Shown here: piece by piece, positions 10,754-55,900 of the stretch
How positions within the stretch are numbered: position 1 is the stretch's first letter
Layout of the letters: each line of letters starts with the position of its first letter
Assembly: GCA_964579435.1 (NCBI GenBank)
Contig: CAZOGI010000010.1
Location: 23,583-87,582 of the forward strand
Reading direction: 5' to 3'
Source of the DNA: an uncultured Planctomycetales bacterium
GTDB taxonomy: Bacteria; Omnitrophota; Gorgyraeia; Gygaellales; Profunditerraquicolaceae
Length of the DNA stretch: 64,000 bases
Notes under the pieces: model-generated
Database searches by the model: none
What the model was told of the DNA's origin: nothing
What the model saw: the letters and a program-made list of their open reading frames with translations, nothing else
Translations under genes and position numbers: made by a program

Positions 10754-11458
10754 GTGAACGCGCCGCCGCAGATCAGCGCTGTCGTCATGGCCTACAACGA
10801 GGCTGGGTCCCTGCGCAGCGTCGTCGAAGAGATCGGCAGGGAATTGCAGGGGCTCTCGCGTCCCTGCGAGATCATCATCGTAAACGACGGCTCGACCGAC
10901 GGGTCCGCGCAAGCGGCAGAGGAGCTCGCCCGGGCCAACCCGTCGGTAAGCGTGATACATCATCCGGCCAACCGCGGGTTAGGGGGGGTGTACGCGACCG
11001 GATTCGCCAAGGCGCGCGGCGACTACATCACCTTTTTCCCCGCGGACGGCCAATTCCCCGCCTCGATCATCAAACGCTTCTTGTGCCGCATGGACGATGC
11101 GGACCTGATCCTGGGATACATCCCCGAACGCAAAAGCCCCGTCCTGGGGATACTTCTGTCGGCATGCGAAAAACTGCTCTACCGCTGCCTTTTCGGCCCG
11201 GTCCCGCGGCTCCAGGGGATATTCATGGTGCGCCGCTCGATACTCCGGGAGCTGAACCTGCAGAGCGACCCCGCGCGGGGATGGGGGATCGTCATGGAGC
11301 TGATCATCAGGGCCCACCGCGCACGAATGCGGATCGCGCACGAATCAACCACCATGCGCCCCCGTTCCTGCGGCTCCTCGAAAGTGAACAACATACGGAC
11401 TGCAGCGGCTAATTTCAAACAGCTCCTGCGGCTCTTCTTCATCCTCAGACGCCGATGA
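10754..11458 (+). CDS. glycosyltransferase family 2, polyprenyl-phosphate glycosyltransferase-like (DPM1/ArnC/GtrB type)
   Basis: Track ORF 10442-11458 trimmed to GTG 10754 (TTG 10745 also possible). ISAVVMAYNEAGSL...IIIVNDGSTDGS...ANRGLGG. ATGA-coupled to the downstream GT-C-like gene. Confidence 0.75.
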   Translation: MNAPPQISAVVMAYNEAGSLRSVVEEIGRELQGLSRPCEIIIVNDGSTDGSAQAAEELARANPSVSVIHHPANRGLGGVYATGFAKARGDYITFFPADGQFPASIIKRFLCRMDDADLILGYIPERKSPVLGILLSACEKLLYRCLFGPVPRLQGIFMVRRSILRELNLQSDPARGWGIVMELIIRAHRARMRIAHESTTMRPRSCGSSKVNNIRTAAANFKQLLRLFFILRRR

Positions 11459-12975
11459 AACGCTCTAGCGGCATTATCCTGGCCGTACTGCTGGCGGCCA
11501 ACCTCGTTGCGCATTTCCTGCCCCTGGAACGCCAGGCCCTGGCGCCCGACGATTACGCGGCACTGGTCCGCGCCCGGGGAGTCTCCCTGAAACAGGCCCT
11601 GAGCAACACGCTGCGCTACCCCGACCGGCCGCTCAATTATCTGGTCCTGTATCTTCAGGCGCGCTTTACCGGCGACCATCCGCAAAGAGGGCTTGTCCTT
11701 GTATTTCTCTCCAGCACGCTTTTGCTGCTGTGCGTTTTCCTCCTCTTTGATGCGCTCACCGGCGAGCGGCGCCTGGCGCTGCTGGCAGGATTCTTTTACT
11801 GCCTGCTCCCTGTAAAGCTGGAGACCTACCATACGCCGATCTTTTTCAACACCAACCTCGCCAGCTGCCTTTTCGTGCTGAGTTTCTATTTCTTTGTGCG
11901 TTTCGCGAACGAAAACCGGCGTCTTTATCTGTCTCTGTCGCTGTTGCTCTACGGAACCGGCATCTTCTGGTACGAAATCGGATTTTTCCTCCCCATCATC
12001 GCCGCGTGCTACTACCTTTTCCAGCGCAAAGAAAAGATCGACTCCCGGGCGCTCCTGCCGTACCTGTCTCTCATGGGTATCTATGCGGCGTATCGCCTCT
12101 CGGGCGGGTTCGGTTGTGCGGACAGACCGGAGAGCACGCACCAGCTCCGGGCGGCGGCGTTTCCGCTCAATCTGCTGGAGCTGGCGCACCACCTGGGCGG
12201 CCGCTATCTCCTGCGCACCGCCGGCTACGGCCTTATGCAATTTTTCAAAGCGGATCTTGCCTGGCCGCTGGTATGGGCCGGGTGCAATGCGGCGTTACTC
12301 ACCCTGATCCAAAAGAGACACATGACACAGGACACAAGACACAAAAAAGAACCGGTCAACAACCTGTTTCTGACGTGTGTCTTCGCCTTTTTCGCGCTGC
12401 CCATCCTGCTCAACGGGGCAGGGGGGGTTGCCGGAAGACACCTGGTCCTGCCGTCGCTGGCCCTGGCACTGTGGCTTGCCCTCTGGTGCGACCGGCCTGC
12501 GCCCGCGGGCCGCCGGTTTTGGATCTGGATCAGCGCAGGGCTCCTGTGCATCAGCCAGGGGACTGCCTGGAGCCAGGTCGTCGCCTGCCGGATCAATGCG
12601 GGGATCTACCGCGCATTGAAAGCCAATGCCCCGCAGTTGCAGAAGGCCGAAACGGTCATCATCGATCTGGAGAGCTTCGCCCGCCACATCCCGTTCACCC
12701 TCGTGCAGCGCGATTTCAATGTGCTCAACACCTATTACGGCGTCCAGTGCCTGGAAGACTGGGGACTGGTCTCGATGGTGCGCCTTGCCGGCGGCTCCCG
12801 GCACCGGACGTATAGCGCGGTTTCTACGCCCGCTCCCGAAGGGGCCGATGAGCTGCGCTTCTCGATACTGCAGGACGCCGGCTACCGTACCAAGAAACGC
12901 CTGACGATAACCGTGCCGAAGAAAAACTCCTTCCTCCTCGACTATGCAGACGCACAACGATACTTTCCCCGCTAA
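11455..12975 (+). CDS. polytopic membrane protein, probable GT-C glycosyltransferase
   Basis: 506 aa. Many TM helices and a first-loop acidic motif APDDY. Carries an in-frame GACACNN heptamer repeat at 12316-12344. Confidence 0.5.
   Translation: MKRSSGIILAVLLAANLVAHFLPLERQALAPDDYAALVRARGVSLKQALSNTLRYPDRPLNYLVLYLQARFTGDHPQRGLVLVFLSSTLLLLCVFLLFDALTGERRLALLAGFFYCLLPVKLETYHTPIFFNTNLASCLFVLSFYFFVRFANENRRLYLSLSLLLYGTGIFWYEIGFFLPIIAACYYLFQRKEKIDSRALLPYLSLMGIYAAYRLSGGFGCADRPESTHQLRAAAFPLNLLELAHHLGGRYLLRTAGYGLMQFFKADLAWPLVWAGCNAALLTLIQKRHMTQDTRHKKEPVNNLFLTCVFAFFALPILLNGAGGVAGRHLVLPSLALALWLALWCDRPAPAGRRFWIWISAGLLCISQGTAWSQVVACRINAGIYRALKANAPQLQKAETVIIDLESFARHIPFTLVQRDFNVLNTYYGVQCLEDWGLVSMVRLAGGSRHRTYSAVSTPAPEGADELRFSILQDAGYRTKKRLTITVPKKNSFLLDYADAQRYFPR
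12316..12344. repeat. GACACNN heptanucleotide tandem repeat (4 units), copy inside a CDS
   Basis: AGACACATGACACAGGACACAAGACACAA matches 29274-29302 at 26 of 29 positions (23 of the 26-nt paired 12-mer core). Read in the same codon phase at both loci. Confidence 0.75.
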
Positions 12976-27052: not shown

Positions 27053-28027
27053 ATGAATATACTGATCACCGGCGGCGCCGGATTCATCGGTTCGCACCTG
27101 GCAGAGCGCCTCCTGCGCGCGGGACACCGGGTAACGGCATTGGACAACCTTTCGACCGGCAAGATTTCCAATATCGCGCACCTGCAGAAAGACCGATCCT
27201 TCCAGCTGGTCATCGGCACGATCCTCAACGAGATGCTCGTCGACAAGCTGGTGGAGCGTTGCGACTGCATCTTCCATCTGGCGGCGGCGGTCGGCGTTGA
27301 GCTCATCGTCAAAAAGCCGATGGAATCACTCACCACCAACATCAAGGGCAGCGAGATCGTCCTGAACATGGCCCACCGTTACCACAAAAAGATCCTCATC
27401 ACCTCCACCTCCGAGATATACGGCAAAAACACCTCCGGCCCCCTCAAGGAAGACGGCGACCGGATCCTCGGATCCCCCTTAAAGACCCGCTGGAGCTACT
27501 CGACCGCCAAGGCAGTCGATGAGATGCTGGCATACGTCTACTGGAAGGAATACGGGGTCCCCTCGGTTATCGTGCGGCTCTTTAACACCGTCGGCCCGCG
27601 GCAATCAAGCGCCTACGGCATGGTCATGCCGCGTTTTATCGAGCAGGCGCTGGCAAACAGGCCGCTGACGGTCTTCGGCTCGGGCAAGCAAACGCGCTGC
27701 TTTATCCACGTCAAGGACGTGGTGAGCGCCCTCATCAAGCTCAGCAACGAGCCGCGCGCGATAGGGGAGGTCTTCAACATCGGCTCCCAGGAAGAGATCA
27801 GCATCGAAAAACTCGCCCTCAGGATCATCGCGCTCACCAGGAGCAAATCCAAGATCCAATACCTCCCGTACGAAAAGGCCTACGAAGAGGGATTCGAGGA
27901 TATGCAGCGTCGTGTCCCCGACACCTCCAAGATAAAAAAACTGGTCGGTTTTAAGCCGACGGTTTCCCTCTCCGGGATCATCCTCGACACCCTGCGCTCT
28001 CTTAAGAAAACAGCCAAGACACGCTAG
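27053..28027 (+). CDS. NAD-dependent sugar epimerase/dehydratase (UDP-sugar 4-epimerase/decarboxylase-like SDR)
   Basis: Track ORF 27005 trimmed to ATG 27053, behind a GAGGA SD. MNILITGGAGFIGSHL and YSTAK. Confidence 0.85.
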   Translation: MNILITGGAGFIGSHLAERLLRAGHRVTALDNLSTGKISNIAHLQKDRSFQLVIGTILNEMLVDKLVERCDCIFHLAAAVGVELIVKKPMESLTTNIKGSEIVLNMAHRYHKKILITSTSEIYGKNTSGPLKEDGDRILGSPLKTRWSYSTAKAVDEMLAYVYWKEYGVPSVIVRLFNTVGPRQSSAYGMVMPRFIEQALANRPLTVFGSGKQTRCFIHVKDVVSALIKLSNEPRAIGEVFNIGSQEEISIEKLALRIIALTRSKSKIQYLPYEKAYEEGFEDMQRRVPDTSKIKKLVGFKPTVSLSGIILDTLRSLKKTAKTR

Positions 28028-28049
28028 GCTCTTGCGCCATACGCACGCT

Positions 28050-29297
28050 ATGGCCGACTCCCGTCACCGACAACCAACCGCTGCGGTGCGCGTCATGCGC
28101 ATCATCGCCCGCCTGAATATCGGCGGCCCGGCAATCCATGCGGTACTGCTCAGCAGCTGCCTGGACCGGAACCGTTTCGAAACGCTCCTGGTCACCGGGG
28201 AAAAAGAGCCCCGGGAAGGGGACATGTCCTATCTGGCCAGGCGCGCGCGGATAGAAGCGGTGGTCATCCCGCAGATGCGCCGGTCACTCAACCCCTTGCT
28301 CGACCTGATCGCCTTCTTTAAGATCTGCGGCTTGATCTCCCGTTTCCGGCCGCAGATCCTGCACACCCACACCGCCAAAGCCGGCACCCTCGGGCGCCTG
28401 GCTGCCTTAACGATCAACCTCTGGCGCGCCCTGACCTTGAGCCCCTTCATCCGCACGGTGCATACGTTCCACGGTCATGTGCTCAGCGACTATTTCAACC
28501 CGATCCAGACCGCTTTCTTCCGAACGCTTGAACGCCTTCTCGCGGCAGGGACCGACCGGCTCGTGACCGTCAGCGAAACGGTTAAACAGGATCTACTGCG
28601 CCTCAAGATCTCCTCCGGGAAACGATTGAGCGTCATCCGGCTTGGGTTCGACCTCGAGCCTTTTTTGTCGCTTGAGCCGGCCCGTTGCGCTACCAGACCG
28701 CGGGTCGGCATCGTCGGCAGGCTCGTGCCGATCAAGAACCACCGCATGTTCCTGGACGCGGTCACGCTCCTGGAAACGGACGCGCAGGCGCATTGTGACT
28801 TTGAAATCATCGGTGACGGCGAGCTGCGCGAATCGCTTCAGTCTTATGCGCAACAGAAAGGCATCGCAGCGCACCTTGAGTTCCGGGGCTGGCAACAGGA
28901 CCTGCCGGCCGTCTACCGCAACCTCGACATCGTCGCGCTGACCTCACTCAACGAAGGCACGCCCGTCTCGATCATCGAAGCGCTCGCCTCAGGGCGAGCG
29001 GTCGTCGCAACCCAGGTCGGAGGGGTCAGCGATCTGCTCGGAGCGGCCCGCAGCGGTTTCGAGGATAACGCTGGTTTCAAAGTATGCCAGCGGGGAATAC
29101 TCATCCGCTCCGGCGATGCGCGCGGCCTCTTTGAGGCGCTGCGGTTTCTCTGCGCGCATCCGCAGCTGTGGCCGGCGCTTACCGAAGCAGGCAGGATATT
29201 CGCCCGGGAGAATTTCGGCAAGGAGCGGCTGGTGGGGGAGATAGAGCGACTGTACGGGGAGTTATTGAAACATAGACACATGACACCTGACACATGA
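28050..29297 (+). CDS. glycosyltransferase family 4 (GT-B fold)
   Basis: Track ORF 28032 trimmed to ATG 28050. RIIARLNIGGPAIH and EGTPVSIIEALASGRAVVAT. The last 8 codons and the stop lie inside the GACACNN repeat. Confidence 0.75.
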   Translation: MADSRHRQPTAAVRVMRIIARLNIGGPAIHAVLLSSCLDRNRFETLLVTGEKEPREGDMSYLARRARIEAVVIPQMRRSLNPLLDLIAFFKICGLISRFRPQILHTHTAKAGTLGRLAALTINLWRALTLSPFIRTVHTFHGHVLSDYFNPIQTAFFRTLERLLAAGTDRLVTVSETVKQDLLRLKISSGKRLSVIRLGFDLEPFLSLEPARCATRPRVGIVGRLVPIKNHRMFLDAVTLLETDAQAHCDFEIIGDGELRESLQSYAQQKGIAAHLEFRGWQQDLPAVYRNLDIVALTSLNEGTPVSIIEALASGRAVVATQVGGVSDLLGAARSGFEDNAGFKVCQRGILIRSGDARGLFEALRFLCAHPQLWPALTEAGRIFARENFGKERLVGEIERLYGELLKHRHMTPDT

Positions 29298-29334
29298 CAC
29301 AAGGTGGAGCACACGAACACAGGAACACAAGGAA
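29274..29334. repeat. GACACNN heptanucleotide tandem repeat
   Basis: GACACATGACAC CT GACACATGACAC is a perfect 12-mer repeated at a 14-nt period, i.e. 4 GACACNN units. It is followed by degenerate 7-nt units (GGTGGAG CACACGA ACACAGG AACACAA). Confidence 0.8.
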
Positions 29335-29390
29335 ATCCCGTGCCCTGATGCTCTTGTGCACCGGTGCGCCTGGCTCTTATAACTGGTGTC

Positions 29391-29419
29391 TTGTGCCTGG
29401 TCACCCGATTTGTTATAAT
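29391..29419 (+). promoter_or_regulatory. sigma70-like promoter TTGTGC-17 nt-TATAAT, leaderless-type
   Basis: -35 at 29391-29396 and -10 at 29414-29419. Only 8 nt separate the -10 from ATG 29428, and there is no SD. Confidence 0.5.
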
Positions 29420-29427
29420 ATAGACTT

Positions 29428-31233
29428 ATGACTCTGCCGATCGCACCCATACTCAGCTACCTGCCGGTATTCCTGCTGGCCTTCGCCCTGAGTTTTTTCG
29501 CCACCCCGATCGTGCGGCGCATCGCTCTGCACCAGGGCCTCATCGCCTACCCGCGCTCCGACCGCTGGCACAAGCAACCGACCGCCCTCATGGGAGGCAC
29601 CAGCATCTTCCTGGCAACGCTGGGGACGATCCTTTTTTTCCGGCTCTTTTCGCCCCCGATGACCGGGCTGCTCCTGGGAGGGACATTCCTCTTCCTCGCC
29701 GGCCTTGCCGATGATAAAATCCACCTGACGCCCTATACCAAGCTTTTCTTCCAGATCGCCGCCGGGTGCATCGCGGTCCTCTTCGGGACGACCCTGCCGC
29801 TCCCGCTGCACTCGATGCTCACCGTGCCGCTGACCCTGCTGTGGATCGTCGGGGTGACGAATTCTTTCAACCTCCTCGACAATATCGACGGCCTCGCGGC
29901 GGGGATCGCGACCATCTCCTCGCTCATGCTCTTCTTCACTTCACTGGTGCTCTCGCAGAACCCCTTCAGCATATTCGCGCTGATCCTGGCTGCTGCCGCG
30001 CTGGGATTCCTGCCCTATAATTTCAATCCCGCCCGGATCTTCATGGGAGACTCCGGCAGCATGTTCCTGGGATTCTCCCTGGCGGTCATCTCGATCTCGG
30101 GGAGCGGACGGCACCTCTCGAGCCTGTCCCTGACCATGCTCATCCCGGTCCTCATCCTTTCGGTGCCGATCTTCGATACTCTTTTCGTGATGATCGTGCG
30201 CACGCTCAACGGCCGCCGGATATTCGACGGCGGCAAAGACCATACCTCGCACCGTCTGGTCACCCTGGGGCTCTCCCAGCGCAAAACCGTCCTTCTGCTC
30301 TACGCCGTCAGCGTCGCCTTCGGCCTGATCGCAATACTCTATACCGCCCGCTTCAACCTCTTCGTCATCTCGGCGGTCGCCTTTCTTTCGGCGACGGTCC
30401 TGCTGTTCTTCGGCATCTTCCTCTTCGACGTAACCTCTTTCCCCGACGAAAAATCGGTCCGCCGCAAACAGCGGATGATGGCCGATGCCACGATCCTCAA
30501 CAACATCCTCATGCACAAACGCCGCTTCGTCGAGGTGCTCCTGGACCTGTCCTTTATCTTTATCGCCTACTACGCGTCGTATTTCCTGCGCTTTGAGGGC
30601 GTGGCCCTGCGGACCAACCTCGTGCTGATGCGGGAATCGCTCCTCTGGGTCATCCTCATCAAACTCTCGGTTTTCTTCATCTTCGGCATGTACCGGGGGA
30701 TGTGGCGTTATATCAGCGTCTCCGACCTGCTGACGATCTTCAAGGTCGTTTCCATCGGCTCGGTCTCCTCGATTATCTTCGTGACTTTCCTCTACCGCTT
30801 CCAGGATTATTCGCGCAAGGTCTTCTTCATCGACTGGATACTGCTGCTCTTTTTGACCTTGGGCTCGCGCATCATCATCCGGGTCATGGGCGAATTCTTC
30901 AGCGGATCGAAAAAAGGCAACACCAAGGTACTGATCTTCGGGGCAGGGGACACCGGCGAGATGCTCGTGCGCGAGATAAAACGAAACGCCGCGCTCTGCT
31001 ACAGCCCCGTCGGTTTCATCGATGACGACCCCACCAAGATCGGCACCAAGATACAGGGGGTCGCGGTTTTGGGCAACCGCGAACGCCTCGACCAGATCGT
31101 CCGGGAACGGGGGATACAGCTGCTCCTGGTCGCGGCCCCGGACATCGGCACCGAAGAATTCCAGGAACTGAGCGCCTACTGCAAGGAAAAAGGTATCGCG
31201 CTCAAGAAGATCAAGGGGCTTCTCGACGACTAA
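29428..31233 (+). CDS. WecA/MraY-family polyprenyl-phosphate sugar-1-phosphate transferase fused to a CapD/WbpM-N-terminal-like membrane + Rossmann module
   Basis: 601 aa. NSFNLLDNIDGLAAG and FMGDSGSMFLGF signatures. C-terminal KVLIFGAGDTGEMLVREI...VGFIDDDPTKIGTKIQGVAVLG. Confidence 0.8.
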   Translation: MTLPIAPILSYLPVFLLAFALSFFATPIVRRIALHQGLIAYPRSDRWHKQPTALMGGTSIFLATLGTILFFRLFSPPMTGLLLGGTFLFLAGLADDKIHLTPYTKLFFQIAAGCIAVLFGTTLPLPLHSMLTVPLTLLWIVGVTNSFNLLDNIDGLAAGIATISSLMLFFTSLVLSQNPFSIFALILAAAALGFLPYNFNPARIFMGDSGSMFLGFSLAVISISGSGRHLSSLSLTMLIPVLILSVPIFDTLFVMIVRTLNGRRIFDGGKDHTSHRLVTLGLSQRKTVLLLYAVSVAFGLIAILYTARFNLFVISAVAFLSATVLLFFGIFLFDVTSFPDEKSVRRKQRMMADATILNNILMHKRRFVEVLLDLSFIFIAYYASYFLRFEGVALRTNLVLMRESLLWVILIKLSVFFIFGMYRGMWRYISVSDLLTIFKVVSIGSVSSIIFVTFLYRFQDYSRKVFFIDWILLLFLTLGSRIIIRVMGEFFSGSKKGNTKVLIFGAGDTGEMLVREIKRNAALCYSPVGFIDDDPTKIGTKIQGVAVLGNRERLDQIVRERGIQLLLVAAPDIGTEEFQELSAYCKEKGIALKKIKGLLDD

Positions 31234-41773: not shown

Positions 41774-41802
41774 ATTATAACATGAAAGGTCGCAGGGACA
41801 CA
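41774..41802 (-). promoter_or_regulatory. candidate promoter for the minus-strand block (TGTGTC-17 nt-TATAAT)
   Basis: On the minus strand, TATAAT (plus-strand 41774-41779) lies 16 nt upstream of ATG 41757. The -35 is weak. Confidence 0.3.
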
Positions 41803-47799: not shown

Positions 47800-49704
47800 A
47801 TGCAAGGATACCCCATGACTGATCGCCGATTCAACCTTTTCATCAGCTTCGCCTGCCTGGCGCTCATCGCGCTCTCCTACGCCAACACTCTCAAGGCGGA
47901 TTTCCACTTCGACGATTTCGACAGCATCGTCAATGTCCCGGCGATCCGCAGCCTGACCAATTTCAAGGAGATATTCCGTCTCACCGAACGGCCGCTCGTC
48001 AACTACTCCTTCGCCGTCAACTACTTCTTCGGAAAACTCAACGTCACCGGATTCCATCTGGTCAATATCGGGCTCCACGCGCTCTGCACGCTGCTGGTCT
48101 TTTTCTTCCTGCGGGAATTGCTTGGCGTACCCCTGCTTAAGGAACGCTACAGCCAAAAGATTGGCCGGTGGCTCTCTGCGGGAAGCGCGTTTCTTTTTGC
48201 CGTCCATCCGGCCAGAGTGGAAGCGGTCACGTATATTACCGCCCGATCGGAGAGCATGGCGTCGGCTTTTTATCTGCTCTCCTGCCTTTGCTTCCTGAAA
48301 TCCCTCTCTGACATCAAGAGAGAGCGGCTCTTCCAAGCGGCGGCAATTGTAGCCAGCGCCATCGGCATGGCAACCAAGGAGATCGTCGCCACACTGCCGG
48401 CGTCCCTGCTGCTGCTCGATTATCTTTTTGTGTGCGCCGGGAATCCCGCCTGCCTGAAGAAACGCGCCCGGTTCCATGCCTCGATGTTCGCCACGATCGC
48501 CGTTACCGTTGCGCTGGTGCTCTATTCGGACAAATGGGGAGCAGCCGGACTGGGTAACCCGAACCTGCACACGCCCCTTCAACACGCCCTCAGTGGTTTG
48601 CGCGCGTACGTCTATTATCTGGCCCTTTTCATCTTTCCGGCACCCGGACGCCTTAACTTCGACACCGATTTTGCCCTCTCCCGCAGCTTCACCGAACCGC
48701 AGGTCCTCGGCGCAAGCCTCTTCATCGCCGCGGCACTTGTCTTGGCCCTGTACGAATCGCGCCGGTGCCCCTTGATCACCTTCGCGATCTTGTGGTATTT
48801 TCTCCTGCTTCTGCCGACCACCAGCTTCATTCCGATCGAAGACCTCGTCTATGAGCGCAGGATGTATCTGGCCGCGCTCGGGCCCGGGCTCATCACGCTC
48901 CTTGCCCTCGGGCCGCTTCCCCGACGCCTGCGCATCGGCATTCTGGCGCTGACAGTCGGGATCCTCTCCCTGTGGACCATCCAGCGCAACGCCATCTGGC
49001 GAACCGAATTCTCCCTCCTGAGCGATTCGCTCAAAAAATCTCCGTACAAAACCCGCACGCTTACGAATATGGGCATGTTTTACCTCACCAAACAACAGGA
49101 CTTAGCTGCTGCCCGCTCCTACCTTGCCAGGGCCTTGCACTACAACCCGGATGCGGCAAACAGCCTGCTGAATATGGGCGTGGTGCAGCTGTTGGAGAAC
49201 AATCTGTCCGGGGCAGAACAACTTTTCCGTAAATTGCTTTATCTCTTTCCGGACGCAACCGCCGGCTATGTCAACCTGGCGACCGTATACCGCCGCTCCG
49301 GCCGGCTCCGGGAAGCAGAAGAGCTTCTACGAACCGCAATCACCATCGAACCTTCCTTCGCGGAAGCGTACGGGAATCTGGGCGTTATTCTGGCAAGCAA
49401 AAGAGAATTTGAGGAAGCCGAAAAGGCGCTTATTAAATCAATCGCTCTGAATCCCGATCTGCCTGAGCCGCACCATAGCCTGGGGCTCATCTATCAGAAG
49501 AGGGGTGACCATAAAAACGCTATCACTCAATTCCAGAGAGCCGTCACTTTGCAGCCTCAATTTTCAAAGGCTCTTTACAGCATGGGCATCTCGTACCTGG
49601 CGCTTGGAGATAAAGAAAAAGCAGAGGAGACGTATGCGAAGCTCCTGAAAATCAATCTTGATCTGGCGCTAAACTTGTTGTCCAGGATTGAGTTAAGACT
49701 TTAG
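47800..49704 (+). CDS. TPR-repeat GT-C glycosyltransferase-like protein (TMTC/DUF1736-type)
   Basis: Track ORF 47749 trimmed to ATG 47800. TM1 then FHFDDFD, about 10 TM helices, and a C-terminal TPR array. Paralogue of 34685-37456. Confidence 0.7.
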   Translation: MQGYPMTDRRFNLFISFACLALIALSYANTLKADFHFDDFDSIVNVPAIRSLTNFKEIFRLTERPLVNYSFAVNYFFGKLNVTGFHLVNIGLHALCTLLVFFFLRELLGVPLLKERYSQKIGRWLSAGSAFLFAVHPARVEAVTYITARSESMASAFYLLSCLCFLKSLSDIKRERLFQAAAIVASAIGMATKEIVATLPASLLLLDYLFVCAGNPACLKKRARFHASMFATIAVTVALVLYSDKWGAAGLGNPNLHTPLQHALSGLRAYVYYLALFIFPAPGRLNFDTDFALSRSFTEPQVLGASLFIAAALVLALYESRRCPLITFAILWYFLLLLPTTSFIPIEDLVYERRMYLAALGPGLITLLALGPLPRRLRIGILALTVGILSLWTIQRNAIWRTEFSLLSDSLKKSPYKTRTLTNMGMFYLTKQQDLAAARSYLARALHYNPDAANSLLNMGVVQLLENNLSGAEQLFRKLLYLFPDATAGYVNLATVYRRSGRLREAEELLRTAITIEPSFAEAYGNLGVILASKREFEEAEKALIKSIALNPDLPEPHHSLGLIYQKRGDHKNAITQFQRAVTLQPQFSKALYSMGISYLALGDKEKAEETYAKLLKINLDLALNLLSRIELRL

Positions 49705-49810
49705 TGAGGAGTGAGGAGTTAGGAGTTTGGAGTTTGGAGCTATGCTTTTAGTTCGTATTTTCTCCCAACTCCTAACTCCCTACCCCCAACTCCCTACTCC
49801 CAACTCCCGA
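49705..49810. repeat. inverted arrays of heptanucleotide tandem repeats (long imperfect hairpin; possible terminator/insulator)
   Basis: Left arm: GAGGAGT GAGGAGT TAGGAGT TTGGAGT TTGGAGC. About a 20-nt AT-rich spacer. Right arm: CTCCCAA CTCCTAA CTCCCTA CCCCCAA CTCCCTA CTCCCAA CTCCCGA. The arms are largely complementary. Confidence 0.8.
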
Positions 49811-49910
49811 ATCACCTTGCCGCCTAAAATGAGCGATGGCATACTTTATAATAGGTAAGAAGATCGGCAACAAAAACCATGACACCAGAGACAAGAAAAC
49901 AAAAAAGAAA

Positions 49911-49938
49911 GTGACTCTTGAGAATAAAATAATATAAT
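49911..49938 (+). promoter_or_regulatory. candidate promoter GTGACT-16 nt-TATAAT, very short leader
   Basis: Sits in the AT-rich 245-nt intergenic region. -10 at 49933-49938, with ATG 49951 lying 12 nt downstream and no SD. Confidence 0.4.
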
Positions 49939-49950
49939 AATAGTTAAGCC

Positions 49951-52900
49951 ATGAAGAGCTTACCGACAAAGAAATTTTTCCGCACTTTTCTCATCCTGGG
50001 GATAACGACGCTCCTGTGCGCAACCCCGCATGCCCTTGCCGCAACCCGTTTCTATTTCGACGCCTCAACCGCAGCAGATGTCACTGCCTCCTATGACGCC
50101 GGCTGGGAATACCAATCCGAGGCAGGCCGCTACAAACTCAACAGGACCAAAGGCTCCTCCGCAATAACCATCGGCACCCAGATCGGCCCCTGGACCGCCG
50201 GCAGCGCCAACCAGGCCCTTGACCGCCAGTACATAAGCGATCCGATCGAAGCCCAGACCATAAGCGGCACGGTCAAAGGCCAGGTCATGTCGCGTGAATA
50301 CAACACCAGCGATAACGTGAACCGGATGTACATCACGGTCAAAGTCGTCTCCAACGACGGTTCCAGCGTGCGGGGGACACTCCTTGCCCTCAATACCTAT
50401 TACACGAATGCCGAACTGATCAGCAACGTAACCCACCGCAACGCCATCCTTGCCAATTCCGACACCGTCACCAACGTCACCGCGCAGCAGGGCGACCGCA
50501 TCCTCATCGAGATCGGCTTCGGCAGCTCGACAACCCAGACCACGCCCGAAGGCTCCTGCAAATGGGGGGAGAATGCATCCGACCTCCCGGAAAACGAAAC
50601 CCAAACAACCGACGGTGCGGGGTGGTTTGAGTTCTCCGCGGATATCACTTTCTATACTCCGCCCAAACCGCAATTCACCCAGAAAGCCTACCAGTGGGAG
50701 AATGACGATTCAACCTCAGGCGTCAACGCCAATTCACAGGCAGCCGAAGACAATACCGCCCTTACCGACGTGCGCATCGGACAGCGCCTCACCTGCAGGA
50801 TGCAGGTCGAGAACGACTCAACCGCCGCATCGAGCGACACCGTCTATCAGCTGCAGTGGGAGAACAACACCGATAACCCCGGGCGCTGGTTCCCGGTCGG
50901 CTACGGGACGCAGATCTCGTACGCAACCGGGCTCGCCGGCTTAAGCGGCGCCTCAACCGGCACCACCGCGCTCTGCGGAACCCCCACGTACACCATGGTC
51001 GCCGGCACCTGGCAGTCAGGGACGAGCCAGAACCCGCCCCACTCCATGGAGACGCAGCGAAGCGCGGAATTCTCTTTTGTCATCGACACCGCCAACGCAA
51101 AAGAAAATAAAGTCTATCGCCTGCGCCTCTTCGACAAAACAAACGCCCAGGCTTTCAATGCCTACACCGTCTATCCGCAGCTGACCACCGTCACCGCCGC
51201 CAACAACACCCTGCGCTACAGCAAAGAGCCACTCGATGCGGTGCAGAACACCTGGCGCATGGCCTCCTATCTGGACGAAACCGGCTATGACAACAGCGCC
51301 TCGGATAACTCGGTTTACGATTCGCTCCCCGCCCGGCGGCTTGCCCTTCGTGCGCAAGCCGACCTGACCTTTACCTCATTCGATGTTTCGCAATACCCGA
51401 CCTCGCAGATGGCCGTAGGCGTGGGAGACTTCAACAACGACGGCTACAACGACCTGCTCATGGGCGGCCAGCGCTACGCGACCTATGTCGGCCGGGCATA
51501 CCTTTATCTCGGCGGCAGCCCGATGGACAGCGTCTGTGACCTCACCATGCAGGCCGGTGCCCTCTACACCAATTCTTATTTCGGCTCCGCGGTCGCGGTC
51601 GGAGATATCAACAACGACAGTTTCGACGACGCCGTGGTCGGCAACTGGGGGTATTACCGTATGTACCTCTACTACGGCTCCACGACCATGAACAACGTCA
51701 TCGACATGACCTTTACCGGCGAAGCGACGAGCGACTACTACGGCTATTCGATCGGCATCAACGACGTCAACGGCGACAGCTTCAAGGATATCGTCACCAA
51801 CGCCCAGTGGTGGAATAACGGCCAGGGAAGACTCTACGTCTATTACGGCGGCACCACGATGAACAATGTTTGTGACCTGACGATAAACGGACAGGGAGGG
51901 GTGCACAACTATCCCGGGTTCGCCTGCGTCGTCGAAGACGTCAACAACGACAGTTTTGCCGACATACTCGTCAGCTCTCCCTACTACTACTATTCGGACA
52001 TGCGCGGCAGGGCATGGCTCTGGTACGGCGGAAACCCGATGGATGCCACCTGCGACAAGACCTTTACCGGAGAGACAACGGGCTCCTATTTCGGCGCTTC
52101 GGGATTATCGATCGGCGAAGTCAATAACGACGGCTTTAAGGACATCCTTATCGGAGCCTACGTCTACAGCTCCACGAAGGGCCGATCGTATCTTTTTTAT
52201 GGAGCGACCGGCACGAGCATGGATATAACCGCTGACAAAACCATCACCGGGAACGCGGGAGACTATCAGGGACAGGGAGAGCAGATCGTCGACGTCAATA
52301 ACGACGACTACGCTGACCTGGTCATCGGCGCCGATGCCTTCGGCAACAGCAGGGGAGTGGTCAAGATTTACTACGGCGGCGCCGACATGGACATCGTCGA
52401 AGACCTCAGCATCGCCACGGGCCAGACAGGCAACTATTTTTCCCAATCGGTCAATACGGGCGACCTGAACAACGACGGGGCCGCTGACCTGATCATCGGA
52501 GCCAACAGCTATCCGAGCCTCACCTACCAGGGCCGCGCCTGGGTTTATTACACCAAACCCCTCTTTGCCCCAACCCAGATCTTCGCCAAAAAGAACACCA
52601 ACAACACCGATTACATCGCCTTTGCCTGGAAAGGCAAAACCGACATGGCCGCAACTTCCGACAACATCATCGTCGAGGCTGCCCAGCAGACGGCGATGGA
52701 TGGCACTAACGACGAGACATTCACCGGAGAAGCGGGGAGCAATTTTTTCAGCAACTGTATCGCGCTTGCCGATTTCAACAACGACCATTACCAGGACCTG
52801 GTGCTGGGCGCCGACGGCTACAACAGCAACCAGGGCCGCGCCTATCTCTACTACGGCGGCACCGGCATAGTCGACACCGCCGCGGCACTTACGTTTAATT

Positions 52901-55900
52901 GTCCGGACACCGGCACCAATTATTTTGCGGGAGGCGGCTGGACCGTATCAACCGGGGACGTAAACGGGGACCTTTATGCCGACCTGCTCCTGGGGGCCGT
53001 CGGCTATAACACGAACATGGGCCGGGCTTTCCTGTACTTAAGCAAGCGCTTCGGCCTCATGGACGGCAGCCCTGACCTGACGCTCACCAGCCCGGCGACC
53101 GGCACAAACTCTTTCGGCAGGAACGCCGTCGGAGACGTCAACGGCGACGGTTTTGCCGATATGCTTATCGGTGCGCCCAGCTACGACACCAATAGGGGCC
53201 GGGTATACCTCTACTACGGCGCCTCAACTCCCGACGCCACTGCTGACCTGGTCCTCGCCGGCGAGACAACCGGAACCTATTTCGGCGACCGGATTGCGGT
53301 CAGTGACGTGAACGGCGATTATTTCTCGGACGTGCTGGTTATGGCTTATGCCTATGCCTCGACCCGCGGCAGGGCATACCTCTATTACGGCGGCACGACC
53401 ATGGATGCCACCTGTGACAAGACCTTTACCGGAGAAGCATCAAACACCAATTTCGGCCGCAGCGGCGGCATCGGCGATATCGATAACGACGGCTACGGCG
53501 ACGTCGTCATCGGGGCCAACCTGTACGCAACAAGCAGCGGCCGCGCCTATCTGTTCTGGGGCGCCACCAACATGGATGTCACCTGCGACAAAACCTTCAC
53601 CGGCGAAACAGCAAGCATACAGTTCGGCCAGGATGTCAGCATTTCCGACCTCAACGCCGACTCCTACGGGGATCTGGTCGTCACCGCCTACACCTGGAAC
53701 ACCAGCCAGGGCCGCGCCTATGTCTACAAAGGCGCCAGCCAGGCCTCCTTTGATACGACCTGTGACCTCACCTTAAGCGGCCTCACCACTACCGACAACT
53801 ACGGACGGGCCGCCCGCTCAGGCGATGTCAACAACGACGGATTCGCCGACCTGGTCGTCGGCGCCTACAATTACAACAGCGGACGCGGCCGGGCGTACCT
53901 CTATTACGGCGATACCGTCTCCTGGGTGACCCAGGCAACCGAAAGTTCCCTGGCAGCAGACACCCCCGGATGGATATACGCGTTCATCGATACCGACCCG
54001 AACCTCTATTACACGCCGGATAACTGGACGTATTGGCGGGTCTATCAGGCTCCGGGACAAGATACCAAAATTCTGGATATCGATTACGTGCAGTTCGACT
54101 TCCAGGCAACGGCGGTCAAGCTCATCTCTTTCTGGGCATTCGGCAAGGACGAAGAGGTCCAGGTCAGATGGGAAACCGCCTCTGAATCGCAGAACCTGGG
54201 CTTCAACCTCTACCGCTCGACATCCTCCGACGGAACTTACACCAAGATAAACGCAGGGATCATCTCCGGCCTCGGCAGCTCGCTGACCGGCAAAGAATAC
54301 TCCTTTACCGACGCCGATGTCTCAAACGGCCGCACCTACTACTACAAGCTGGAATCGATCGAGTTCACCGGCACCCGCGTCATGCACGGCCCCATCGAAG
54401 CGCATCCCGGGCTCGATGCCGACTCAGACGGCATGAGCGACGACTGGGAGGCGCATTACGGGCTCAACAGCGCTGACGCCTCGGACGCAGGGGCAGACCG
54501 CGACAGCGACGGACTGACGAATCTGCAGGAATACACCCTGGGCACCGACCCGACCCGCTCGGGCCAGGTAAGCGCAGGCGCAAGCGGCAGCGGCGGGCTC
54601 ACCGTCGTCTCCAGCGACTCAACCGGCATCACCCTGGAACTGCGCACCCCCGGGATCGAAAGCCGCACCGTCACCGTCAACAAACAAGCGTATCAATCCC
54701 TGAGCATCCCTGCCTATGCGCACGGCTATACGGCCATAAGCGCAAGCGCGCGCATGCCGGTCAAGCCGGTGATGCTTGCCCTGCCGCCCAATGCCGGCTG
54801 TTCCGTAGAAATCCTCAGCGAAGAGACGGAGATCTTCAGTAATTATACGGTAGAGCCGGTTACCACCTACACCCTGGAAGCGGATGCCAACGAAGAAGCG
54901 CTGCAATCGGGAGGCTTCGGCAAAACAGGACCGCTCGAGATAACGGTCGATCCGGCCGCGATCAACACCGTCTTCTATCAGCAGGACAGCAGCTATCCCG
55001 GGGAGCGCGCCGAGGTCGAATGGGTGGGAGATCTGCGCTCTCAGCGTATCGCCTGCCTGCGCCTGGCGCCGCTGCGCTTCAACCCGGCAAAGAAGGAGCT
55101 GACGATCTCCAAAGTCCTGCGCGTGCGGGTCACCTTTACCCAGGGAGGCGCTGCATCGGGAAACTGGCAGCTCTCCGAAACGGCCAAAAACGCGCGCATC
55201 AAGATCAAAACCGAAGGAGGCGGCATCCGCCGGCTTACCTGGACCGACCTGTATAACGCCGGCCTCACCGACGTGATCTGGTCCGACCCGCGACTCCTTT
55301 CCATGACCAACCTCGGCACGGAAATCGCTATCCGCGTCAAAGGCGAAGAGGACGGGATCTTCAATTTCGACGATTACGTGGAATTTTACGCCCGGGAAAT
55401 ACCGGCGCATTACGATGGATCGAGCCCCTACGCCGCGTATGCAAAATACTCTCCCCACAATGTTTACTTTTTGGGCTTTGGATCCTCCAACGGCAAACGC
55501 ATGGAGACGCGCGAAAGCAGCGCCAATGAAGGAAGCGTCTCGCCCGCGCGCTTCCGCCACACCGCCACCTTCGAGCAGAACGATTTTTACTGGAGCACCC
55601 GGGCGGGAGGGGAGCACGCAGACCGCTGGTTCTGGTCGCCTGCCCTCTGGGAAGACACGAGCCAGGAATACGCGCTGAACCTGCCCCATGTCGATGTCGA
55701 CAGCGCCGCCGAGACGGCAAGCGTCTCTTTGGTGTACTACCCGCTCCTGTACCTGCCGCAGCCCAGCGAAACCGCCAAAGCGACCGTCGCCCACGAAACA
55801 AGCGCAACCCTCAACGGCGTCTCCCTCGGCAGTGACACCTGGCAGGGCATGCAGGAACGCACCATCGAGGCGGAAATCGCACACGCCAGCCTTATTACCG

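Follow-up and report, generated by a model that had tools for sequence, protein, structure and literature searches.

Heptameric repeats are over-represented in many bacteria according to a passage in PMC4692102 that cites Mrazek 2007, and an explanation from the polymerase footprint and strand slippage is tentatively proposed there. Examples named in that passage and in the work cited by it (Mrazek 2007, Mazel 1990) are the cyanobacterial STRR elements, the Xanthomonas unit GGGAATC and the Nostoc unit GGGGA(T/C)T. The present analysis concerns an array of four GACACNN heptamers at the end of a GT4-family glycosyltransferase gene, located at positions 29275-29302 (+ strand) of a 64,000-nt stretch of DNA, hereafter the window (assembly GCA_964579435.1, contig CAZOGI010000010.1, positions 23,583 to 87,582), from an uncultured bacterium assigned to the Omnitrophota. 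The array is a heptanucleotide simple-sequence repeat (SSR, microsatellite) with the unit NNGACAC, equivalently NTGACAC. It was probably made by strand slippage and tolerated only at unconstrained positions.

The element has the defining features of the general heptameric SSR class and is a member of no named unit-specific family. Shared with the class are the head-to-tail 7-nt units, several arrays per genome, a strong intergenic preference, occasional inverted stem-loop pairs and, at one orthologous pair of loci in other genomes, a difference in length. It differs in its unit GACACNN, which is neither G-rich nor quadruplex-forming, in its shortness (four units), and in its hosts, which are Omnitrophota-like here and mainly Chloroflexota/Anaerolineae among other matches. 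What is new is a new unit in new lineages within a known class of bacterial heptanucleotide repeats. The units of STRR1-3 are reportedly CCCCAGT, TTGGTCA or CAACAGT, and their hosts heterocystous cyanobacteria; the array described here does not belong to them, its unit being GACACNN and its nearest named protein homologues coming from Candidatus Omnitrophota.

Direct repeats of TAACTGA have been described from marine Beggiatoaceae, some Cyanobacteria and Bacteroidetes (MacGregor 2015, PMC4679880). Like the GACAC arrays, they carry stops in three frames in forward orientation, overlap the stop codon of the upstream gene, lie forward upstream of the next gene, have few copies within open reading frames (ORFs), these at peripheral or variable positions, and are distributed patchily across phyla. 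The unit itself is a different one here (GACACNN). TAACTGA sets are found within a few nucleotides of start codons, where they replace the Shine-Dalgarno region, whereas the GACAC array lies 126 nt upstream with a putative promoter between. Within ORFs, TAACTGA copies are reverse-oriented, whereas GACAC arrays are forward and in frame once their TGA triplets are mutated or out of frame.

Geobacter metallireducens has four tandem GGGACCG heptamers at 49 sites within and between genes, and also five tandem copies of MTYCTGA (PMC2700814). These elements resemble the GACAC arrays in consisting of four or five tandem heptamers dispersed over intergenic and intragenic sites, and a regulatory role was only proposed for them; unit and phylum are different, and the per-genome copy number is known for Geobacter. 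The neuO gene of Escherichia coli K1 carries a tract of AAGACTC in its 5' coding region and is ON at unit numbers that are multiples of 3; the tracts comprise 3-53 repeats, commonly about 20 (PMC13001214). A second array of the window, at 12317-12344, shares with neuO a 7-nt repeat within a gene for a surface-polysaccharide enzyme, where only three-unit changes keep the frame. The neuO tracts are long and perfect with measured switching, whereas the four units at 12317 are not identical. Such an in-ORF, frame-shifting tract is present at 12317-12344 only; the array at 29275-29302 cannot switch its enzyme off. A literature search, with subscription journals outside its coverage, found no paper on GACAC/NTGACAC arrays or on heptamer arrays in Chloroflexota or Omnitrophota, nor a description of locus-specific heptamer-array hairpins for these lineages.

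Heptamer array at the end of the GT4 gene

The sequence AGACACATGACACCTGACACATGACACAAGG begins at 29274, as described in the original prediction, and contains four head-to-tail units (GACACAT, GACACCT, GACACAT and GACACAA) starting at 29275, 29282, 29289 and 29296. The 12-mer GACACATGACAC occurs at 29275 and again at 29289, hence the 14-nt period noted before, and all arrays of the window lie on the + strand. An assembly artefact is excluded by an independent Logan assembly of SRR12133403, which is identical (100%) from 27239 to 29452.

Compared with compositional expectation within the 64-kb window, the repeat is far above chance: pairs of GACAC 7 nt apart were found six times, against 0.075 expected. 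Allowing up to two mismatches, GACACATGACAC has seven matches in the window, against 2.3 expected, a number reached in 0 of 100 shuffles. All tandem repeats of the window with at least four copies have a period of 7 (four arrays with three different units), and no such array appeared in 40 dinucleotide shuffles. Four head-to-tail copies each are present at 29275-29302 and 12317-12344. The array is real, lies where it had been placed and is of an ordinary kind. Array and stop codon stand as originally predicted; the further claim of related copies at other gene boundaries does not, as set out below.

The GT4 gene was called as an ORF from 28032 to 29297 (+ strand); its database version, P0001, starts at 28095 and comprises 400 amino acids. 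Pfam domains of the product are Glyco_transf_4 and Glycos_transf_1. With P0001 the identity is 100%; the closest of the other homologues stand at about 50% (the next one at 52%), and the named ones are from Candidatus Omnitrophota. The last codons and the stop of the gene lie in the array. The stop is the TGA at 29295-29297, whose T closes unit 3 and whose GA opens unit 4, so that the predicted position of a gene stop within the repeat was correct.

Further TGA triplets at 29281 and 29288 complete a set of one per forward reading frame. The forward frames of the core array translate as DT*HLTHDT, THDT*HMTQ and HMTPDT*H; on the reverse strand, none of the three frames contains a stop. Each NTGACAC unit brings its own TGA, and since a period of 7 is not divisible by 3, three units stop all forward frames, and any gene running into such an array ends there. 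That the gene stops within the repeat thus results mechanically from the unit and is nothing special. Likewise, the C-terminal tail KHRHMTPDT of the GT4 protein is the array translated up to its third TGA. It follows the conserved ..LY..L end of the catalytic domain, after which homologues have variable, unrelated tails of roughly 0-13 amino acids.

When slippage was simulated at the GT4 site, added units had no effect and the loss of one unit made the tail 26 amino acids longer. As such changes at the gene end leave the enzyme intact, the site is tolerant of changes in unit number. Allelic variation was sought in several collections. Exact look-ups of the window proteins had their sole match in the organism's own 2.2-kb Logan contig; the protein cluster has a single member, and the nearest homologues of the GT4 and ArnT-like proteins (the latter encoded around the 12317 array) are 40-53% identical. 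A scan of metagenomes for alternative alleles, with anchored flanks and a variable gap, found none. With the next homologue at 52% identity, a comparison of unit number at the GT4 locus met no relative close enough for strain comparison.

Heptamer arrays with other units

An inverted pair of heptamer arrays is present in the window at 49703-49808, composed of (GAGGAGT/TTGGAGT)n and (CTCCCAA/CTCCCTA)n and recorded by Tandem Repeats Finder (TRF) at 49703-49739 and 49762-49808. It folds into a hairpin of 100 nt with -42.5 kcal/mol (z -5.3), matched by 0 of 200 shuffles. The hairpin follows directly after the stop codon of a TPR gene, about 40 nt before a TATAAT box, and resembles a terminator or insulator composed of heptamer repeats. 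Since its units are not GACAC, this genome builds heptamer arrays from other units too.

An unbiased sample of 80 metagenome loci (380 kb), picked by homology to the GT4 protein alone, gave the same picture. Among 58 arrays with at least three copies, 32 had a period of 7; 24 of these 32 lay outside long ORFs, and 19 had a complementary partner no more than 160 nt away. The hairpins tested had z values from -4.4 to -8.3, their arms being complementary arrays of locus-specific units. They were located at L151 4195-4300, L167 715-815 and 2055-2150, L200 1568-1650, L204 1625-1730, L188 420-555 and L194 6430-6560, and some abut start or stop codons. Locus L151 has the same synteny from GT4 to a WecA-like gene as the window and carries its hairpin in the spacer between them.

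In four of the GT4-homologue loci an array follows directly after the GT4 gene, in every case with non-GACAC units. Because relatives carry arrays at the GT4 junction with other units, this junction is a permissive place for heptamer arrays in the lineage. The recurring feature is the 7-nt period, not the unit sequence.

GACAC arrays in other genomes

A total of 185,579 species-representative genomes were scanned for GACACATGACACNNGACAC, which gave at least 119 loci; all figures on these pattern loci refer to the matches listed. By record title, 59 loci were from Chloroflexota (mostly Anaerolineae, Ardenticatenales, Promineifilaceae and Caldilineales), 11 from Bacteroidota, 7 from Omnitrophota, 6 from Patescibacteria, 5 each from Planctomycetota and Verrucomicrobiota, 4 from Elusimicrobiota and 22 from others. 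Among the others, 15 of 22 were bare three-unit matches, chance-like for 17 specified bases. Arrays of at least five units were present in 34 of the 59 Chloroflexota loci, and the longest array had 19 units (L040, Bacteroidota). One genome can hold several loci, as in the Chloroflexota isolate BJ8 with ten.

Tandem repeats with at least three copies in these loci comprised 198 of period 7, 35 of period 8 and no more than seven of each remaining period length; unrelated units made up about 90 of the arrays with period 7. The arrays were intergenic in 95 of 173 cases and at ORF ends in a further 34 (together 129/173). An upstream ORF on the same strand stopped within the array in 24 of 103 cases and no more than 9 nt away in 11 more; 32 of 118 arrays ended less than 20 nt before a candidate start codon. 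In Chloroflexota the arrays often occur as inverted pairs of the form (GTGTCAN)n-loop-(NTGACAC)n. For unpaired arrays, the strand reading GACAC coincided with the sense strand of the following gene in 39 instances versus 8, counting arrays of at least four units flanked by open frames of at least 250 amino acids; looser criteria gave 56 versus 11, and both counts rest on heuristic gene calls.

Related genomes differ in how well an array is kept. At an orthologous site in two Anaerolineae (L026 and L109, flanks 86-92% identical), 5 versus 11 units were counted. Another pair, L018 and L035, has a 100% identical array hairpin, the loci being about 91% identical overall. In-frame copies occur elsewhere in variable protein regions; examples, in proteins whose identity was read by eye, are KTHDTRHKTH in a MiaB-like radical-SAM loop of an Omnitrophota metagenome-assembled genome (MAG), and a copy in the N-terminus of a dihydroorotate-dehydrogenase (PyrD)-like protein.

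Three Chloroflexota loci (L002, L063 and L088) carry a GACAC stretch of 3-4 units antisense in a long ORF that is about 81% conserved among the three genomes. Since the stretch sits within a conserved long ORF, some pattern matches are ordinary coding sequence. A locus of Candidatus Omnitrophota RA.bin146 (L022, 2165-2420) contains four copies of a higher-order repeat of about 58 nt, made of GACAC heptamers and the A-rich spacer ACGAAAACCTTAAAAACAGAAAAAA. The repeat is flanked by two genes of a cluster for polysaccharide export, read by eye as encoding Wza-like and ExeA-like ATPase proteins, and a short inverted partner, GTGTCATGTGTC, stands just before the ribosome-binding site of the next gene.

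The sequence GACACACGA, which recurs at array ends in several phyla, was rejected as a separate motif and is merely a partial next unit. Carriage by phages was also rejected: six matches were found in a viral collection, which is about the chance number for 17 specified bases if a size of about 50 Gb is assumed for that collection.

Second array and weaker relatives

The second array at 12317-12344 (+ strand) consists of the units GACACAT, GACACAG, GACACAA and GACACAA and lies in frame within the ORF 11455-12975, a single gene of 506 amino acids for a membrane glycosyltransferase with a PMT_2 (ArnT-like) domain. The array encodes ..KRHMTQDTRHKKE.. (..QKRHMTQDTRHKKE..), a short charged loop between hydrophobic segments; in homologues this loop is of variable sequence and the same length. 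The possibility that a gene junction lies at the array was rejected, as homologues of 500-520 amino acids cover 95-98% of the ORF across both halves.

A near-identical copy of the GT4-end array had been predicted near 12316. It exists at 12317-12344, with 26 of 29 positions identical and a BLAST E-value of 1e-4; it is intragenic and not at a gene boundary. The similarity ends at the array edges, and much of it follows automatically from the shared 5-nt core. Only one unit of this copy carries a TGA, and this TGA is out of frame, which is why the intragenic copy survives. In simulated slippage, a change by one unit in either direction shifted the frame, so that the array was followed by 23 or 175 residues and no longer by 226, and changes by three units remained in frame.

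Two weaker relatives had been proposed in addition. The one at 49878-49910 (+ strand; CATGACACCAGAGACAAGAAAACAAAAAAGAAA), a possible decayed relative in the putative leader of a gene for 2657 amino acids (49951-57924), rests on a collinear 8-mer and 11-mer shared with the 12317 copy at a 1-nt offset (E 30 and 0.5) and is not secure. The one at 41797 is an 8-mer match at chance level. Accordingly, related copies at other gene boundaries are not found: the 12317 copy is intragenic, the 49878 one marginal and the 41797 one a chance match. A longer dispersed element was rejected as well, since the copies at 12317 and 29275 are not similar beyond the edges of the arrays and the other two matches are at chance level or close to it. 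An 11-codon ORF (MTPETRKQKRK) is also present at 49879-49914, within the A-rich putative leader of the gene for 2657 amino acids.

Spacer between the GT4 and WecA-type genes

Downstream of the core array, an A/C-rich degenerate continuation extends from 29303 to 29334 (+ strand; GGAGCACAC GAACACAG GAACACAAG GAAA). The 7-nt periodicity that had been predicted to run in degenerate form to about 29334 was not recovered: TRF scored 29306-29334 as period 8, with 3.5 copies of GGAACACA and 80% matches. Read in 7-nt register, the units at 29310 and 29324 are each one mismatch off GACAC. The region 29266-29340 contains 43% A, 27% C and 9% T (C 27% versus G 21%) and is essentially unstructured, with -6.5 kcal/mol over 75 nt (z -0.2). 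The palindrome GCACCGGTGC is present at 29358-29367, as predicted.

No structured element was detected in the spacer. The fold of 29260-29430 was no better than that of shuffled sequences (z -0.76; sub-regions z -0.18 to -0.78, among them -0.38), so the stability of a heptamer-array hairpin or intrinsic terminator, which is seen at 49695-49815 (z -5.3), is absent here. A terminator consensus scan of the spacer gave no site and neither a U-tract nor another terminator signature. Rfam 15 gave no gathering-score match across the window, a permissive Rfam scan of 29200-29480 returned only a spurious microRNA match (22 bits versus a threshold of 70), and a search for tRNA and tmRNA genes found none. 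A hairpin or terminator at 29274 was therefore rejected, as folds were not above shuffles and the consensus scans for terminators and promoters were empty.

A weak inverted partner of the array was located at 29384-29404 (- strand), with three degenerate units in 7-nt register (GTGACCA, GGCACAA and GACACCA). It would pair with the array over 14 nt (29274-29287 with 29385-29398) at 86% complementarity, with 97 nt between the arms. The partner overlaps a putative -35 hexamer, TTGTGC (29391-29396), which stands 17 nt upstream of TGTTATAAT, an extended -10-like element at 29411-29419 (+ strand). The latter ends 8 nt short of the WecA/MraY-type gene (29428-31233), which starts with an ATG at 29428, and 126 nt separate the end of the array at 29302 from this ATG, the TATAAT box lying between. 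On motif positions, these elements may form a promoter for a near-leaderless or leaderless mRNA of the WecA-type gene. The promoter consensus scanner made no call before this gene, as the -35 agrees at only 3 of 6 positions.

TATAAT hexamers are enriched in intergenic DNA: of the 11 in the window, 4 fall within its true intergenic portion, which amounts to only about 600 nt or about 1% of the whole, and each of the four faces the adjacent gene. They are located within 29411-29430, at 41774-41779 (- strand), at 49847-49852 and at 49933-49938. The RNA of the array would be at most an A/C-rich unstructured spacer that separates the end of a transcription unit from the putative WecA-type promoter.

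The spacer also contains a 27-codon ORF (MLLCTGAPGSYNWCLVPGHPICYNIDL) at 29348-29431, the TGA of which overlaps the ATG of the WecA-type gene (ATGA). If two array units were deleted, the GT4 frame would read through to the stop of this small ORF, which is probably coincidental.

The window as a whole is a dense polysaccharide-synthesis region, with several glycosyltransferase families, Wzy_C, Wzz/GNVR, PMT_2-TPR proteins and radical-SAM enzymes identified by Pfam. Pfam scans of 20 window proteins gave no DNA-binding regulator family. The products of the WecA-type gene and the ArnT-like gene have no exact match in a collection of 15 billion proteins, in which the GT4 protein is present. For the ArnT-like protein no near-identical match was found there either; different start calls, a pseudogene flag or incomplete coverage are possible reasons.

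Origin of the array and alternative explanations

Slipped-strand mispairing would generate and maintain the NTGACAC repeat in a lineage favouring 7-nt units. The arrays would last only in nearly unconstrained sequence, here the variable GT4 tail with the adjoining spacer (29275-29334) and the variable ArnT-like loop (12317-12344), and a gene entering an array would stop at the unit's own TGA. Among the explanations offered in the original prediction, a slippage-prone tract fits best, on account of the dominance of period 7 with several units in the window, the listed pattern loci and the GT4-homologue loci, and of the 5 versus 11 units at one site in Anaerolineae. A dispersed short-repeat family had been proposed as well; the unit does recur at two sites of the window and in many other genomes, but the similarity is confined to the arrays themselves. 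For the third option of that prediction, a protein-binding array, no specific support emerged. The array, its non-randomness, its position, its frame properties and its kinship with period-7 arrays elsewhere are observed. From these we infer that the array arose by slippage and that it serves no dedicated sequence-specific function here.

Several points weigh against this explanation. The unit recurs in distant phyla and at many loci per genome (ten in BJ8), so slippage acting locus by locus is insufficient alone. The sense-strand bias of unpaired arrays, subject to the heuristic gene calls behind it, may reflect RNA-level selection or function, or else a strand-asymmetric mutation process. 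The array hairpin of L018 and L035 has remained fully identical despite the divergence of the loci. The ArnT-like loop has not been lengthened by its array, which fits in-situ conversion better than simple insertion.

A first alternative takes the array as the decayed left arm of a heptamer-array hairpin with a terminator- or insulator-like role, the right arm having been eroded or overwritten by the putative promoter. An intact example stands in the window at 49703-49808, after a stop codon and before TATAAT boxes; 19 of the 32 period-7 arrays in the GT4-homologue loci are paired, with z values of -4.4 to -8.3 where tested; and in L151 a hairpin occupies the same spacer from GT4 to the WecA-like gene. 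The three degenerate inverted units at 29404-29384, giving the 14-nt arms with 86% complementarity, could be the remains of the right arm, and the Omnitrophota locus L022 has the same layout of arrays, a long spacer and then GTGTCATGTGTC before the next gene. However, long-range pairing in the spacer is no better than in shuffled sequence (z -0.76), the arms are separated by 97 nt, chance can account for a 14-nt arm with 86% complementarity in this region, and the terminator scan found neither a U-tract nor another signature. We regard a decayed hairpin as unlikely.

Secondly, the array might be a cis-regulatory element, either a direct-repeat DNA operator, of the kind of the ctxAB heptads and SARP boxes, upstream of the putative WecA-type promoter or an A/C-rich RNA platform for a protein or the ribosome. 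The sense orientation of arrays relative to the downstream gene, the many arrays ending 0-40 nt before a start codon, the occurrence of the unit in several phyla and the perfect conservation of one orthologous array (L018/L035) are consistent with this, as is the distance of about 90-115 nt between the array and the putative -35/-10 pair (about 90 nt to the -35). Precedents are the TTTTGAT heptads of ctxAB, Nostoc heptamers near start codons (bioRxiv 10.1101/2022.06.06.494920) and the TAACTGA repeats (PMC4679880). The GT4-end array itself, however, is 126 nt away from the start codon with the putative promoter in between, the second-best copy lies inside a coding region, and the Pfam scans of 20 window proteins gave no DNA-binding regulator family. 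Relatives carry entirely different units at the GT4 junction, so the unit sequence is not what is conserved there. The orientation bias comes from heuristic gene calls, and selection against G/U-rich self-pairing RNA could also cause it. Regulation in cis therefore appears rather improbable on this comparative evidence.

A broader form of this idea would make NTGACAC arrays a cross-phylum cis-element, placed in sense orientation between a stop and the next start and read by an RNA-binding protein or the ribosome, for instance as a three-frame stop-and-reset module or an unstructured landing pad, with the in-frame ArnT-like copy acting as a low-frequency switch of a glycan enzyme. Such an element could extend over Chloroflexota, Omnitrophota, Planctomycetota, Verrucomicrobiota, Elusimicrobiota and Bacteroidota. 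We consider it quite improbable.

The arrays could also be contingency (phase-variation) tracts, with a gain or loss of one unit switching the ArnT-like enzyme off at 12317 and altering the GT4 tail at 29275. In the simulations a one-unit change shifted the frame of the ArnT-like gene and a three-unit change kept it; both host genes act on surface glycans according to their Pfam domains; neuO with its AAGACTC repeats is a precedent (PMC13001214); and unit number differs between related Anaerolineae at one site (5 versus 11). Known switches are long perfect tracts, however, and the 12317 array has only four units, which differ at their NN positions. Moreover, the GT4 array stands at the very gene end, where a unit change leaves the enzyme intact, no alternative alleles were found in the protein collection or metagenomes searched, and the organism is known from an environmental MAG without obvious host-driven selection. 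Phase variation is accordingly very unlikely.

A Rho-utilisation (rut) site, loading Rho after the GT4 stop and terminating the upstream operon, would suit the location directly downstream of the stop codon, the lack of structure (-6.5 kcal/mol over 75 nt) and the excess of C (27%) over G (21%), but was rejected as most improbable on composition, the region being A-rich and not C-rich, with 4 YC dimers in 75 nt where the window average would give about 12. A Pho box, suggested by the likeness of ATGACAC to the reverse complement of CTGTCAT, was rejected on its period: such boxes recur at 11-bp intervals, and the period here is 7.

Implications

The locus itself is of little import, consisting of a mechanical stop codon and ordinary polysaccharide-synthesis genes. 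For genome annotation, it matters that such arrays put stops and ATG/GTG/TTG starts into every frame of one strand and into no frame of the other. Because the start and stop codons of an array sit on one strand only, and its reverse strand is without stops, wrong start calls and spurious long antisense ORFs result.

The known over-representation of heptamers is extended here to uncultured lineages, namely Omnitrophota-like organisms and Anaerolineae, which form many intergenic hairpins from inverted heptamer arrays with locus-specific units. The thread most worth following is that a single unit, NTGACAC, recurs across phyla with an apparent sense-strand bias. If this bias proves true genome-wide, it would reopen the question whether heptamer repeats are slippage products or signals.

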